A stretch of 64,000 nt of DNA, from NCBI GenBank assembly GCA_028281525.1, contig JANQJR010000071.1, positions 4,692 through 68,691 of the forward strand, given 5' to 3'. Made by a program: the position numbers and the translations under genes. This document shows positions 10,870-56,372 of the stretch, one piece after another. Position 1 is the stretch's first letter, and each line of letters starts with the position of its first letter. The stretch comes from Magnetovibrio sp. Lineage in GTDB: Bacteria > Pseudomonadota > Alphaproteobacteria > Rhodospirillales > Magnetovibrionaceae. A model generated the notes under the pieces. That model was not told the origin of the DNA and did not search any database. It saw only the letters and a program-made list of their open reading frames with translations.

Positions 10870-13011
10870 GTGAATTCGACGAGCTATGAAGTCCAAGTGA
10901 TGCAAGGCGGCAAGTGGCGTATCCACGCCCAGTTTCCGCCCTCTGGTCGCGAGGACGCCATCGAAGAAGCCAAAACGCTGGAATCCATGCCTGGCCTGTC
11001 CGGCATTAAAGTTGTGCGCGACAACTACGATGACCGTACGGGTCTGCATAGAGAGCATGTCATTTACAAATATATGCCGAAAAAGACCGCCCAGACCGAA
11101 GCGGAGATAGGCTCGCCTTCTTTCGACGGCGGCAAGTACGCCCATTACATGGCCCGCGCCCAGGCCAACCGTATGAGCGATATCGACTTTGGCGACAGCC
11201 CCCTCATGCCAAAGCCCAAATCATCCGGCTTGAATGTCTTCATCAAACTGCTTTTGGTTTTGTTGTTCTCCATCGCCTTCGCGGCGCTGGTGGTGTTCTT
11301 GGTCAACGGCGTTCTGCCGTATAAGAAGATCGGTGACATCCGGCTTTACGGTGAGATGCGCTCCAGCATCATGATGGGCCTGGGCATCAGCACGTTCTTG
11401 TTGAGCGTGCTGATCGCTTACTTCGCCTTCATGCGCGGCGAAGAGTTGGACGCCCCCGATCTCGCACTTCAGGAAAAACTGAAAAGAGCCGAGACCGCCA
11501 AACGCGCCAAGCAGAAAGCCCAGGAAGAAGCGCAACGCAAGGCCAAAGAGGACGCGCTGGAACATGCCCGCGAAGAGCTGGAACGCAAGAAGGAGGAAGA
11601 GGAAGAGCTCAAGCGTGAGGCCGAAGAGGAATTGAAAGAAAAAACCGAACAGGAAGAAACAGTTCAAGAAGACGAAAAGCCCGAAGAGCAGCCGGCCGAA
11701 GAAGAAGAAAAGGAAGAAGAGGAATCGTCCAATCTCTCCCCCGTGGCCGAAGCACAAAAGGCCGTGCTTATGGGCTTTTTCGGCGCAGCCATCCGTGCCC
11801 TTCCAGCCGAGCGCAAGAAGATGGATAACTACAATCGCTTCGGTGTGAACCTGTTCTTGGCCGGTGCGACGGAAAGCCTGGGCAGTACGCGCAACCTGGA
11901 TTCGGACAGCATGTCGCAGATTCTGACCTATGCCTTGGGCATCATGGGCCTCAAACCTGAACATGCGGCTGCCTTCGCCAACCGCTACGAAGATTATTTG
12001 CTGCAAGACGCCCGTTACATGGAGATGTTTCAAGCCGGCCGCCAGACCATGAACGCGTATACCGACGGCGACGAAGAAGCGCCGCAAAAACTCGATGAAT
12101 TCCTGCACGAATGGAACAAGCCCAAAGCACCCGAAGATCCGGAAAAGGAAGTGGTGGTGATGTTCACCGACATTGCCGGCTCCACCGCCATGACCCACGA
12201 AAAAGGCAACTTGGCCGCCCAGGAAGTGGTGCGCGCCCACAACCGCGTGGTCCGCGACGTGCTGGCGAAAACCGGTGGTCAGGAAATCAAACACACCGGC
12301 GACGGCATCATGGCGTCTTTCCAAAAGGTCACGGAATCTTTGATGGCCACGCAACAAATGCAAATGATGATCGCCATGCACAACCAGCAGAACCCGGACA
12401 TTCCGCTGAAAGTCAAGGTCGGCATCAATGCCGGACGCGTGTTGATGGAAGAAAAGGACCTTTACGGCGTCACCGTGCAGATGGCCGCGCGCATCGTGGA
12501 CAAAGCCAAGGCCAGCCAGATACTGGTGTCCGACACCGTCCACGGCATGGCCAAAGGCGGCAATTGGCGCTTCGTCAAACGCGGGCCGTATTATCTGAAA
12601 GGAATCGACGGCCCGGCCTATCTGCAGGAATTGGTGTGGAACGACAAACTCGACATTGAATCCGTTAAGACCGCCGCCGAAGCTGAACGCCCACAGTTGG
12701 AACAGATGTACGCCGCCGCCATCGGCACGCCCCCACCACCCGGCGCCAAGACCGACCAAGACGCTGCCGTCCAACACCCCGCGGGCGAACCGGCGCAATC
12801 CGCCGCGTCCGGCGCAGCCACGCAACCACAACAGCCGCAAGCGCCAAAAGAGCAAGCGTCACAAAAACCCCAAGACCAGCCCTTGCCCCAGGCTCAACGC
12901 GCAGCGCAAAACCAACCTCGGACCAAGCCCCAGATTCAAGTGCCCCGGCGTGAACCGCGTCGCGAACCTCGGCGCGACCCCAAACCGCCCCAGCAACCGC
13001 AACGCCGCTAA
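10870..13011 (+). CDS. Membrane-anchored class III adenylate/guanylate cyclase domain protein
   Basis: Two TM helices; Glu/Lys-rich linker; VMFTDIAGST, IKHTGDGIM and GVTVQMAARI motifs; Pro/Gln-rich tail. Confidence 0.85.
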   Translation: MNSTSYEVQVMQGGKWRIHAQFPPSGREDAIEEAKTLESMPGLSGIKVVRDNYDDRTGLHREHVIYKYMPKKTAQTEAEIGSPSFDGGKYAHYMARAQANRMSDIDFGDSPLMPKPKSSGLNVFIKLLLVLLFSIAFAALVVFLVNGVLPYKKIGDIRLYGEMRSSIMMGLGISTFLLSVLIAYFAFMRGEELDAPDLALQEKLKRAETAKRAKQKAQEEAQRKAKEDALEHAREELERKKEEEEELKREAEEELKEKTEQEETVQEDEKPEEQPAEEEEKEEEESSNLSPVAEAQKAVLMGFFGAAIRALPAERKKMDNYNRFGVNLFLAGATESLGSTRNLDSDSMSQILTYALGIMGLKPEHAAAFANRYEDYLLQDARYMEMFQAGRQTMNAYTDGDEEAPQKLDEFLHEWNKPKAPEDPEKEVVVMFTDIAGSTAMTHEKGNLAAQEVVRAHNRVVRDVLAKTGGQEIKHTGDGIMASFQKVTESLMATQQMQMMIAMHNQQNPDIPLKVKVGINAGRVLMEEKDLYGVTVQMAARIVDKAKASQILVSDTVHGMAKGGNWRFVKRGPYYLKGIDGPAYLQELVWNDKLDIESVKTAAEAERPQLEQMYAAAIGTPPPPGAKTDQDAAVQHPAGEPAQSAASGAATQPQQPQAPKEQASQKPQDQPLPQAQRAAQNQPRTKPQIQVPRREPRREPRRDPKPPQQPQRR

Positions 13012-13084: not shown

Positions 13085-13199
13085 TGCACCCGGGGATGCC
13101 ACGAAGTGGGTCCCACAGCGCGTGCAGCATGAACCGGAGTTTCGCCGATTGCCGGGAAACTCCATATCCATAGTTGCTCTGAAAAGGAGAACCGTTATG
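13085..13199 (+). promoter_or_regulatory. ROSE-type RNA thermometer in the hsp20 5' UTR
   Basis: 3' hairpin GUU(G)CUCU-GAAAA-GGAGAAC (13173-13192) with the conserved UUGCU bulged-G motif paired to the SD; upstream hairpin GGAGTTTC/GAAACTCC (13136-13163). Confidence 0.8.
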
Positions 13200-13658
13200 C
13201 GTACCATCGATTTGACTCCCCTCAACCGTTTTGCCGTCGGCTTTGACCGCATGCAGCGCCAGCTCGAAAGCCTGGCCCATCTCGACGAAGCCGCAGGCGC
13301 ATACCCGCCCTACAATATCGAAGTTCTGGGTGAAGACGCCTATCGCATCACCATGGCCGTTGCCGGTTTCGGCATCGACGACCTGGAAATCACCGCGCAA
13401 GACAGCCGCCTGAGCATTGCCGGCCGTGTGGAGCGCGACGACAGCGGCGTGGAATACCTGCACCGCGGCATCGCGACGCGCGCGTTCGAACGCCGTTTCG
13501 AACTGGCCGACCACATCAAGGTCGCCGGCGCGGACATGGACAACGGCCTGTTGCACATCGAACTGGTCCGTGAAGTTCCGGAAGCGTTGAAACCACGCAC
13601 CATCGCCATCAAAGGCGGTGCGAAAGCGACCAAAACCATCGAACAGCAGGCCGCTTAA
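13197..13658 (+). CDS. ibpA: Small heat shock protein (Hsp20/IbpA family)
   Basis: YPPYNIE, AVAGF, YLHRGIATRAFERRF and NGLLHIEL motifs; AGGAGA SD. Confidence 0.93.
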   Translation: MRTIDLTPLNRFAVGFDRMQRQLESLAHLDEAAGAYPPYNIEVLGEDAYRITMAVAGFGIDDLEITAQDSRLSIAGRVERDDSGVEYLHRGIATRAFERRFELADHIKVAGADMDNGLLHIELVREVPEALKPRTIAIKGGAKATKTIEQQAA

Positions 13659-13810: not shown

Positions 13811-13886
13811 AAAAGGAAAAGGGCTGCCGTGGAGCAGCCCTTATACCGGTTTCGAGCCCTGTTAAACTCGCCGTCTCAATTTTTGT
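13811..13886 (-). ncRNA. Putative ~75-nt small RNA (B) with its own sigma70-like promoter and terminator
   Basis: Minus strand: TTGACC (13920-13915)-N16-TAAAGT (13898-13893); terminator GGGCTGC/GCAGCCC (13821-13840) plus U-tract. Contains the 17-nt complement of putative sRNA A. Confidence 0.45.
13857..13873. repeat. 17-bp inverted repeat, left copy (CCCTGTTAAACTCGCCG)
   Basis: Exact reverse complement of 14553-14569. Confidence 0.9.
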
Positions 13887-13987
13887 GGCGAGACTTTACC
13901 ATTTCAATGAACGAGGTCAAGCAGGCAAATATACCTGCATTGCAAAAAGCGCATGCCTGTTTTCCAGCCCCCCAGGGGCAAGTCCGC

Positions 13988-14395
13988 CTAATACACGGTG
14001 CTCATGCCATCGCCGCTGCCTGGTTCGTTACGGAGCTTTGCCTTTTCATAACGCTTGGCCACGTCTTTAATTTGCTCACCTGACAAAGTGCTCACATCCT
14101 GGTCACCGATAAAATAAAACCGGCAGTCCTTGCGGATATTATATTCTTTTCTAATCTTCTGGCAGTGTTGCATCGCCCGGTCCATGGCCTGTTTCGCTGT
14201 AGGTCTGTTATATGACCAAGCATAGGAATAACCTCGTCCCATCCCCGCATAGGCTCCGGCCATGGCCTTCATGTGGTTATGCTGAGAGTATTCGTTGAGG
14301 TTATAGTGCATTCTTGCGGGCACATGAGTGGTGGTTTGGCATGCCGTTAATGTGAATGCCGACAAAACAGCAAACGATAAGATGAAAACTTTCAT
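13988..14395 (-). CDS. Hypothetical lipoprotein (AT-richer orphan)
   Basis: Signal peptide with lipobox LTAC; conserved-looking AMDRAMQHC..KDCRFY segment; A/T-rich codons. Confidence 0.75.
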   Translation of the reverse strand: MKVFILSFAVLSAFTLTACQTTTHVPARMHYNLNEYSQHNHMKAMAGAYAGMGRGYSYAWSYNRPTAKQAMDRAMQHCQKIRKEYNIRKDCRFYFIGDQDVSTLSGEQIKDVAKRYEKAKLRNEPGSGDGMSTVY

Positions 14396-14526
14396 GGTCA
14401 CGCCCCCATACCGATAACGTCAACACATGCGTGCCAACACGATCATGGGACAATCGTACACAGTTCAAGCTAACTAAGGCAAACCTGTCTCGGGTTGCTT
14501 TAGGGAAGCTAAGCGATGAGGGGGCG

Positions 14527-14605
14527 AAAAATACCGCCCCAGATCTGCGGGGCGGCGAGTTTAACAGGGAGGCGCCGGAGGTCTTGTGCGAAAACCTTCC
14601 GGCAC
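14527..14605 (-). ncRNA. Putative ~80-nt small RNA (A) with CCUCCC anti-SD motif (suhB/MmgR-like architecture)
   Basis: 5' hairpin GCCGGAAGG/CCTCCGGC; single-stranded GCCTCCCTGTTAAACTC; terminator CCGCCCC/GGGGCGG (14534-14555) plus UAUUUUU; -10 TATGGT at 14615-14610. Confidence 0.55.
14553..14569. repeat. 17-bp inverted repeat, right copy (CGGCGAGTTTAACAGGG)
   Basis: Exact reverse complement of 13857-13873. Confidence 0.9.
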
Positions 14606-14627
14606 ATGCACCATAGCCAGCCTAGCG

Positions 14628-14643
14628 TTAAAATAGTGTTAAC
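14628..14643. promoter_or_regulatory. CtrA binding site (TTAA-N7-TTAAC)
   Basis: TTAA-AATAGTG-TTAAC, a perfect consensus, overlapping the -35 position of putative sRNA A. Confidence 0.7.
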
Positions 14644-14692
14644 CTAAAACGGGTTTCCCATAGGTGGCGCCCCGGTCAAGCACCCTGCCACC

Positions 14693-14875
14693 TCAACTCT
14701 TGAAAAACGCATCCGCCCCGGCGCGCGCGGCTTTCTTGGCTTCGATGGCGGCTTCGGCACGGGCAATTTCCGCCTTCAGGCCGCCGATGTATTCACCGAT
14801 AGCCTCGATGGACATTTCATCCAAGTCCTTCTGACCGGCCTTGGGTCGGGTCGGCTCCAAATCGTCGCTATCCAT
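14693..14875 (-). CDS. DUF1192 family protein
   Basis: MDSDDLEP...DLDEMSIEAIGEYIGGLKAEIARAEAAI..KKAARAGADAFFKS. Confidence 0.88.
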   Translation of the reverse strand: MDSDDLEPTRPKAGQKDLDEMSIEAIGEYIGGLKAEIARAEAAIEAKKAARAGADAFFKS

Positions 14876-14959
14876 GCGTCCCTCCTCTTGTCTTCGTGCG
14901 CAGCTTGAGCATACTGACTCCCTTACTCCCCGGGAAGTGTCGAAAGGTGACCAGCGAGA

Positions 14960-55751: not shown

Positions 55752-56372
55752 GTGCGTATCCTGGTTTTGGTGACCATCGTGCTCGCCGTTGCAGCCGGTG
55801 CTTGGGTGGTGACCGGGCAGGCGCCCGTGAGCGCATCCAACGGCAAGACCAAAGTGTTTCAAGGGGCCGGCGAAACCAACCTTGACCTCAACCACCCGGA
55901 CAACATCCTGTTGCTTGACACCCGGCACGGCCGCGTCACCATTCAAATGCGACCGGATCTGGCGCCCAAACACGTGCAACGGATCAAGGAATTGGTCCGC
56001 CAAGGCTTTTACGACGGGCTGGCGTTTCACCGTGTCATTCCCAGCTTCATGGCCCAGGGTGGCGATCCGGCGGGCAACGGCACTGGTGGGTCGGGTATAA
56101 AAATCCCGGGTGAGTTTTCAGATATCAAATTTGAACGCGGCATCGTCGGCATGGCCCGTTCGCGCGGCGTGAACAGCGCCGACAGCCAGTTTTTCATCAT
56201 GTTGGGCAATGGCCGTTGGCTGGACGGTCAATACACCGCCTGGGGCCAGGTGAGCGACGGCATGGATGCGGTTTTCGCCATCAAGAAAGGCCGCGCCAAC
56301 GAAAACGGCAAGATCGATGGCGAGCCCGACCGCATCTTGCGCATGCACATCCAAGCGGACAGCCAAAACTGA
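55752..56372 (+). CDS. Cyclophilin-type peptidyl-prolyl isomerase (tandem paralog)
   Basis: FHRVIPSFMAQGGDP and SADSQFFI motifs. Confidence 0.94.
   Translation: MRILVLVTIVLAVAAGAWVVTGQAPVSASNGKTKVFQGAGETNLDLNHPDNILLLDTRHGRVTIQMRPDLAPKHVQRIKELVRQGFYDGLAFHRVIPSFMAQGGDPAGNGTGGSGIKIPGEFSDIKFERGIVGMARSRGVNSADSQFFIMLGNGRWLDGQYTAWGQVSDGMDAVFAIKKGRANENGKIDGEPDRILRMHIQADSQN

Follow-up and report, generated by a model that had tools for sequence, protein, structure and literature searches.

Two small RNA genes, here called A and B, lie on the minus strand of the window (the whole 64,000-nucleotide stretch of Magnetovibrio sp. DNA that was analysed, contig C37:4692-68691), and they probably constitute an ancient linked sRNA/anti-sRNA module of the Rhodospirillales, in which the two genes would be independent of each other and B would antagonise A. 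Both genes are conserved, as are their promoter and terminator signals and their linkage, and the duplex between the two RNAs is under selection at the RNA level; transcription of A and B is predicted from these sequences. The window contains an exact 17-bp inverted repeat, with arms at 13857-13873 (CCCTGTTAAACTCGCCG) and 14553-14569 (CGGCGAGTTTAACAGGG) and 679 nt separating them. By our own estimate, an exact 17-mer inverted pair with arms at most 1 kb apart would arise somewhere in the 64-kb window with a probability of about 4e-3, and a search of the whole genome (3.58 Mb, 58.5% GC) identified unit B as the sole long complement of the A seed. The initial annotation of this DNA had described the repeat as 17-bp inverted copies about 700 bp apart, and this and every other sequence feature that it listed could be located (Table 1).

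Table 1. Predicted features of the A and B genes, their promoters and the gene between them.
Feature	Positions	Strand	Basis and remarks
sRNA A	~14606-14527	minus	~79-80 nt predicted; fold, terminator call, covariance model R1
A 5' hairpin	~14603-14574	minus	fold
A single-stranded seed, GCCUCCCUGUUAAACUCGCC	14573-14554	minus	fold
A terminator stem and U-run	14556-14533	minus	terminator prediction
A portion pairing with B, CCCUGUUAAACUCGCCG	14553-14569	minus	complementarity searches and pair counts
TTAA-N7-TTAA box, TTAAAATAGTGTTAA (TTAACACTATTTTAA on the minus strand)	14628-14642	minus	sequence; C at 14643
Putative A -10, TATGGT within GCTATGGT	14610-14615	minus	sequence; 12 nt downstream of the box
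Orphan lipoprotein ORF	13988-14401	minus	135 aa from ATG at 14395; lipobox LTAC
B promoter: -35 TTGACC (13920-13915), N16, extended -10 TGGTAAAGT ending at 13893	13893-13920	minus	promoter prediction
sRNA B	~13886-13808	minus	~76-79 nt predicted; fold, terminator call, covariance model R2
B A-rich 5' leader, ACAAAAAUU	13886-13878	minus	sequence
B antiseed, CGGCGAGUUUAACAGGG	13873-13857	minus	complement of A
B terminator stem (10 bp) and U-run	13842-13819	minus	terminator prediction

For the minus strand from 14612 to 14520, the predicted fold (-40.4 kcal/mol, z = -3.4) consists of a 5' hairpin, then an unpaired CCUCCCUGUUAAACU stretch, and then a terminator made up of a 9-bp G+C-rich stem and a following U-run. 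The seed contains a CCUCCC anti-SD motif, and both the fold and the terminator call bear out the layout first drawn for unit A, with a 5' hairpin, an exposed CCUCCC stretch and a terminator on the minus strand. BLAST of unit A against relatives matched the seed region in many genomes. An alignment of 14 homologues showed a CCUCCCUGU-A core that is invariant between a variable hairpin and terminator, while the wider seed GCCUCCCUGUUAAACU is unpaired and nearly invariant. Compensatory changes were present in 7 of the 14 predicted pairs of A across the same homologues, with covariation in the hairpin as well as in the terminator. A covariance model of the unit A family (R1) was searched in 201 genomes sampled from the Rhodospirillales and matched 166 of them, representing 73 of 90 genera, with 2-5 matches per genome in many cases. 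One sibling in the Magnetovibrio sp. genome, A2 on contig C16, is a longer RNA whose seed differs from that of A by one A-to-G change, and the 150 nt read upstream of it held no CtrA box. By these comparisons, A is an ancient sRNA family conserved across the Rhodospirillales.

The TTAA-N7-TTAA box of A is located at about -39 to -25 relative to the predicted start, where it stands in for a -35 hexamer. Among the 54 lineages, counted as distinct A/B loci, the exact box was found upstream of A in 51 and a version with at most one mismatch in all 54, which strengthens the earlier view that a box at 14628-14643 replaces a good -35 of A. The distance from the end of the box to the base of the 5' hairpin was 23-24 nt in the five lineages measured (this genome, G010, G013, G008 and G003), and TAnnnT or GCTAnnGT elements, similar to the -10 of A, were found in relatives. 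A full box overlapping the -35 region is a mark of CtrA-regulon promoters, and CtrA boxes in this position activate transcription in Caulobacter. Contig C52 encodes a CtrA orthologue with 70% identity to the Caulobacter protein, and CtrA may bind the box upstream of A. Given a CtrA-type box in its -35 region, the output of A should follow CtrA~P activity. The exact pattern occurs 10 times in the 3.58-Mb genome, and a crude view of the ORFs near the remaining nine sites revealed no obvious flagellar or chemotaxis theme or motility regulon. The initial annotation had called the sRNA cell-cycle-timed, a term derived solely from the box, and we do not retain it. CtrA is mainly linked to motility in the Rhodospirillales; in Magnetospirillum and Rhodospirillum centenum it governs motility or cyst formation and is non-essential. 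A motility or lifestyle role of the CtrA-type control at A is at least as likely as a cell-cycle role.

Unit B has a near-consensus sigma-70-like promoter of its own, which reads TTGACC-N16-TAAAGT with a TG extension and a -35 in the context CTTGACC; the predicted start is the A at 13886. The conserved core of B is GCGAGUUUAACAGG. Four congeners keep the -35 TTGACC, the extended -10, the antiseed GCGAGUUUAACAGGGCUC and the terminator, with the extended -10 reading TGATAAAGT in two of them, TGGTAAAGT in Magnetovibrio sp. and TGATATTGT in one. The same elements recur in further genera and families, and the promoter pattern was matched in 47 of the 54 lineages. A covariance model of unit B (R2), searched in the same 201 Rhodospirillales genomes, gave full-length matches (E < 1e-6) in about 100. 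B is present in a single copy in the Magnetovibrio sp. genome. Its antiseed core is as conserved as that of A, and beyond the antiseed the mean column identity is 54%. The leader has an A fraction of 0.34 compared to a background of 0.20, with ACAAAAAU runs in family f1. In this family the antiseed can also fold on itself (GAGUUU/AACA/GGGCUC), which might limit access. We rejected the idea that B is a decayed plus-strand paralogue of A, as its promoter and terminator are on the minus strand and its substitutions match G-U pairing, not conservation of a seed. The promoter, terminator and strand proposed for B at the outset were confirmed, with promoter and terminator conserved, and the proposal of two separate small RNA genes on the same strand holds in that both are conserved and separately bounded.

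When the R1 and R2 coordinates were compared by eye, about 50 pairs had B immediately downstream of A with both on the same strand. The distance is nearly always 110-180 nt, and one genome (G115) carries two A-B pairs. The widespread gene order is QOR - DUF1192 - A - B - HSP20, with DUF1192 adjacent in 60 of 76 loci, and it is probably the ancestral order. In a few genomes A and B are separated by 0.4-9.4 kb, the largest distances being those of G103 and G066, and in G041 1.2 kb is inserted between them. The congeners, which include M. blakemorei MV-1 (contig NZ_MCGG01000011), illustrate both states. The distance from seed to antiseed is 157 nt in G003 and 129 nt in G004; G005 has a porin gene, encoded on the opposite strand, between A and B, and in G002 the contig with A breaks inside the homologous porin gene and B is found on another contig.

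In the Magnetovibrio sp. genome the space between the A terminator and the B promoter is occupied by the lipoprotein ORF. The 20 other genomes of the family, a contig scan and a search of 5.8 billion proteins yielded no homologue of its product, and it has only a weak DUF4189 match, under the cut-off. The gene has a GC content of 47-50% compared to 58.5% for the genome, and the inserted segment (about 13937-14526) sits within the A-B spacer with ends that differ from the repeats. These comparisons identify the lipoprotein gene as an insertion outside the ancestral module, with B predating it. The orphan gene that the initial annotation placed between the units is thus present, but it is incidental to the sRNA module. 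As no terminator was called between the gene and B, the lipoprotein mRNA probably ends at the B terminator and so carries an anti-A site, which is a secondary consequence of the insertion and not the origin of B. The occurrence of the orphan lipoprotein gene in one genome and of a porin gene at the same spot in two congeners suggests that A and B act in trans, and the same swap indicates that the repeats do not bound a cassette.

The 17-nt duplex spans the 3' part of the A seed and the first five bases of the A terminator stem, as had been proposed for B pairing with half of the seed and the start of the stem. A:B complementarity of 12-18 nt was found in 52-54 distinct lineages from more than 20 GTDB families. 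As an unselected test, we took the best 30 A matches and sought in each the longest complement to its own seed, with G-U pairs allowed. In 23 of these loci a downstream complement of 12-18 nt was found on the same strand at +109 to +178 nt, and in two it is displaced by inserted DNA, to +1216 in G041 and to +699 in the genome described here. The corresponding control searches in the 30 loci gave 7-12 nt upstream and 7-10 nt on the opposite strand. Three of the 30 had no complement in range, two owing to contig ends and one (G005) to an insertion that puts B beyond range, and two loci of family f2 have only 10 contiguous complementary nt because of a 1-nt bulge in the complement.

We then counted pairs in a gap-free concatenation of 52 distinct seed/antiseed pairs, each required to have at least 12 nt of complementarity, and the 12-bp core contained standard pairs in 624 of 624 cells. 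One-sided changes were seen in 46 core cells, each giving a G-U pair, and two-sided compensatory changes in 4 (one position changing from U-A to A-U or C-G, and another from C-G to U-A). In the proposed register 86% of cells were paired, compared to 23-47% in slid registers, and the observed covariation score was reached by none of 500 shuffles. Since the core duplex is almost invariant, true covariation rests on a few lineages and on the flanks. The latter vary by lineage, and pairing tends to be kept (A CUCGCCG with B CGGCGAG here, A CUUGCGC with B GCGCGAG in genus g7); in several families B continues with ...UUGAGGC, and this would form pairs with GCCUC if a short bulge is allowed. The strand-specific G-U or compensatory changes indicate that A:B pairing is selected at the RNA level. 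A G-U pair on the strand of A and B corresponds to an A-C mismatch on the other strand, which places the constraint on the RNA of the A/B strand and not on the DNA. The complementarity of the 17-mers in relatives, which the initial annotation had put forward for examination, is in this way kept through wobble and compensatory changes in more than 20 GTDB families. A long complement to the seed of a trans-acting sRNA that is conserved along with it is a mark of sponges, and in the A:B duplex the 12-bp core is 100% paired. In a cofold of the predicted 79-nt A and 76-nt B the heterodimer was favoured by -16.3 kcal/mol and engaged the A seed and the 5' side of the A terminator stem.

In the mechanism that we propose, A would be an alpha-r8-like trans-acting sRNA transcribed from the CtrA-box promoter, and B would be made constitutively from its near-consensus sigma-70 promoter. 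Downstream of its A-rich leader, B would offer a site of 12-18 nt to the 3' half of the A seed and the base of the terminator stem. B would bind free A, and probably also A2, so that the seed is blocked, and would open the base of the A terminator hairpin, leaving A inactivated or destabilised. In this way a threshold would be set, and A could act on mRNAs only once its CtrA-driven transcription rose above it. An hfq gene is present in the genome and the A-rich leader of B appears to resemble target-type Hfq sites, and we would expect both an involvement of Hfq and mRNA targets of A. The genome contains no long perfect mRNA target of A beyond B, and no conserved mRNA target of A was found. A cheY-like gene located 2.5 kb from ctrA has an 11-nt GUUUAACAGGG site at its ribosome-binding site, but this candidate A target was rejected because 29 relatives do not keep the site upstream of the orthologue. 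A genome-wide ranking of start regions by duplex energy with A was dominated by GC-rich spurious ORFs, and the 5' region of ctrA showed no notable complementarity to A or B.

The pairing itself is inherently symmetric, and the core of B is conserved as much as that of A. The roles could accordingly be reversed or mutual, with B regulating mRNAs of its own via GAGUUUAACAGGG and the CtrA-induced A serving as its sponge, or with the two RNAs forming a co-degradation toggle; in Caulobacter, CrfA and SisA do lower each other's levels (PMC12559287). We consider this unlikely. It is A that has the anti-SD motif CCUCCC, as trans-acting sRNAs of alphaproteobacteria typically do, and a sibling sharing its seed, whereas B is single-copy, resembles a target-type Hfq site in its A-rich leader and is poorly conserved beyond the antiseed (54%). 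Binding of A fully accounts for the conservation of B. We infer from the anti-SD motif and the siblings of A, and from a single-copy B conserved only at the antiseed, that B antagonises A.

The location of A and B on the same strand, usually 110-180 nt apart, would also suit two arms of one read-through transcript joined in a long-range helix, which might serve as a substrate of RNase III or be a structured RNA; G-U-tolerant pairing is equally consistent with a helix in cis. The strong terminator and U-run conserved after A and the -35 and extended -10 conserved before B make such a helix improbable, as do the gene-sized insertions tolerated in four lineages, one of them a porin gene on the opposite strand, and separations of up to 9.4 kb; the conservation of the A terminator and of the B promoter, together with the tolerance of insertions, favours two trans-acting RNAs. 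The initial annotation had itself raised two other possibilities, that B is the 3' UTR of the lipoprotein mRNA serving as a target site or that the repeats mark the two ends of a cassette that was inserted or can invert. Both draw on this genome, where the repeats flank a low-GC orphan gene and the mRNA of that gene, with no terminator before B, probably includes B. In relatives that have no lipoprotein gene, B is nevertheless present with its promoter, antiseed and terminator, so that B predates a gene unique to this genome. The borders of the insert fall within the spacer and not at the repeats, which in every relative are parts of A and B and are thus not cassette ends, and the strand-specific G-U changes point to a constraint on RNA and not on DNA. 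To either possibility we attach very little probability, and as the primary explanation they are already refuted by the comparative data.

The sRNA/anti-sRNA reading of the initial annotation is well supported by the comparisons with relatives, which extend it to a module conserved across the order. With two independent RNAs and antagonism of A by B as the preferred reading, we lean slightly towards a further view, that the A-B pair is an undescribed, order-wide, hard-wired cassette in which adjacency matches gene dosage and CtrA~P is converted into a thresholded post-transcriptional output. Most known sRNA sponges came out of interactome experiments and are scattered and lineage-specific. The A-B antagonist pair is visible from sequence alone, is found across the order and is nearly always linked; literature searches found no published description of it. 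If this view is true, no sponge before B would have been known to be inherited in tandem with its own sRNA over a range of more than 20 bacterial families, and A and B would each found a new, easily modelled RNA family that Rfam 15 lacks. The insertions between A and B represent a natural trans experiment, in which adjacency is not needed for retention. The pair would offer a system for studying how titration by a sponge shapes the output of the master regulator CtrA, and it would make accessible to testing what forms the post-transcriptional arm of the CtrA regulon in alphaproteobacteria whose CtrA governs motility instead of the cell cycle.

Neither A nor B reached the threshold of any Rfam family. 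Across the window and 20 homologous loci, no family of Rfam 15 attained its gathering score, and weak matches to SorX, suhB, ncS025 and ctRNA_p42d were rejected. SorX of Rhodobacter sphaeroides (RF02784) shares the hairpin-seed-terminator layout, and the seed stretch CCUCCCUGUU of A aligns with its consensus, but A scores 17.1 bits (E = 0.43) compared to a cut-off of 46.6. SorX arises by processing of an mRNA 3' UTR, and A differs from it in having a boxed promoter of its own.

The suhB/MmgR-type label that A had been given was likewise not upheld. A scores 15.2 bits with suhB (RF00519), compared to a cut-off of 41, and A-type relatives reach at most 32.8 bits; the best RF00519 match in the genome is on contig C43 (42.1 bits), away from A. 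The alpha-r8 (suhB/MmgR) sRNAs and A are alike in being alphaproteobacterial RNAs of about 80 nt with a weak 5' hairpin, a single-stranded CCUCCCU stretch and a Rho-independent terminator. The core of A is however GCCUCCCUGUUAAACU, which has CCUCCCU alone in common with the alpha-r8 10-mer UUUCCUCCCU and does not contain that 10-mer, and the synteny of A is with DUF1192 and HSP20 and not with the N-formylglutamate amidohydrolase gene that neighbours alpha-r8. On sequence grounds A resembles alpha-r8 in architecture and is not a member of it.

The closest CtrA-dependent sRNA is CcnA of Caulobacter, a CtrA-activated RNA of 182 nt encoded in the replication origin, which acts via a CCCC loop on ctrA and gcrA (PMC8959179). 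CcnA has no linked antagonist and no sequence or structural similarity to A, and it is thus unrelated in sequence, size and location.

Bacterial sRNA sponges, or anti-sRNAs, form a class that includes CrfA, SroC and AgvB. Caulobacter crescentus CrfA sponges the alpha-r8 siblings SisA-D (PMC12559287). As proposed for B, a dedicated non-coding RNA there inactivates sRNAs of the hairpin-seed-terminator type by pairing with their conserved C-rich core, which is single-stranded, and SisA-D, like A and A2, are siblings with unrelated promoters. The differences lie in arrangement and in the site of pairing. CrfA is unlinked to its partners, is induced by starvation and pairs with the UUUCCUCCCU 10-mer itself, whereas B adjoins A in nearly every genome, has a constitutive-looking promoter and pairs mainly 3' of the CCUCCC motif, into the terminator stem; nor is order-wide conservation together with its partner known for CrfA. 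Together, these comparisons make CrfA and SisA-D the closest functional precedent for the A-B pair.

The spacer (window 13937-14526) that separates A and B, the two predicted small RNAs of the minus strand, looks like a hot spot for insertions. Its content is a low-GC orphan lipoprotein gene in the source genome, an opposite-strand porin gene in the congeners G005 and G002, and other DNA of 0.4-9.4 kb in several other families. Judging from the reading frames, the usual call for the lipoprotein gene is probably too short (truncated), since a longer frame starting at ATG 14395 adds a signal peptide that bears a lipobox (LTAC); the sole family signal was a weak, sub-threshold match to DUF4189. 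Comparison of 76 loci across the order Rhodospirillales revealed synteny of the A-B pair with DUF1192 at 60 loci and with HSP20 at 36, and it is possible that the RNA pair is functionally tied to these small proteins. Besides its cyclase domain, the 713-aa protein encoded nearby has a membrane segment, a long coiled region rich in Glu and Lys, and a tail rich in Pro and Gln.

Features around the A-B pair and related loci elsewhere in the source genome (window coordinates unless a contig, C, is named)
Feature	Position	Strand	Remark
Class III adenylate/guanylate cyclase-domain protein	10870-13011	plus	713 aa
HSP20 gene	13122-13658	plus	convergent with B
Lipoprotein gene	13988-14401	minus	protein-database entry gives a 107-aa product
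DUF1192 gene	14693-14878	minus	directly upstream of A
A2, sibling of A (locus L003)	C16 ~56140-56302, outside the window	minus	~160 nt
RF00519 (suhB/alpha-r8) match (locus L068)	C43:1454-1531	minus	42.1 bits against a cut-off of 41

The antiseed of B (window 13857-13875, minus strand), which complements the seed of A, can fold on itself in family f1 as GAGUUU/AACA/GGGCUC, a 6-bp stem that includes three G-U pairs. Such a fold would account for the conservation of GGGCUC in the f1 antiseeds, its counterpart in other families being GGGACU or GG-UUGAGGC, and the stem may act as a gate or provide a loop at which pairing with A is nucleated. B could also pair with A2 over 16 nt, including one G-U. 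In A2, 3 hairpins with C-rich loops are followed by GCCUCCCUGUUAGACUCGCC and a terminator. A2-like RNAs are also present in G006 (2 copies) and G039.

Full TTAA-N7-TTAA sites, the CtrA-type box found upstream of A, number only 10 in the 3.58 Mb of the source genome. This box is absent from the 150 nt read upstream of A2. On C52, about 100 nt 5' of the ctrA start codon, TTAA-N6-TTAA stands in its place. Compared with the suhB/alpha-r8 model, the source genome has a sole match above the cut-off, that on C43; TTAA-N5-TTAA lies immediately upstream of this locus, and its single-stranded stretch, CCCCCUUGCAAACUU, differs from the family 10-mer.
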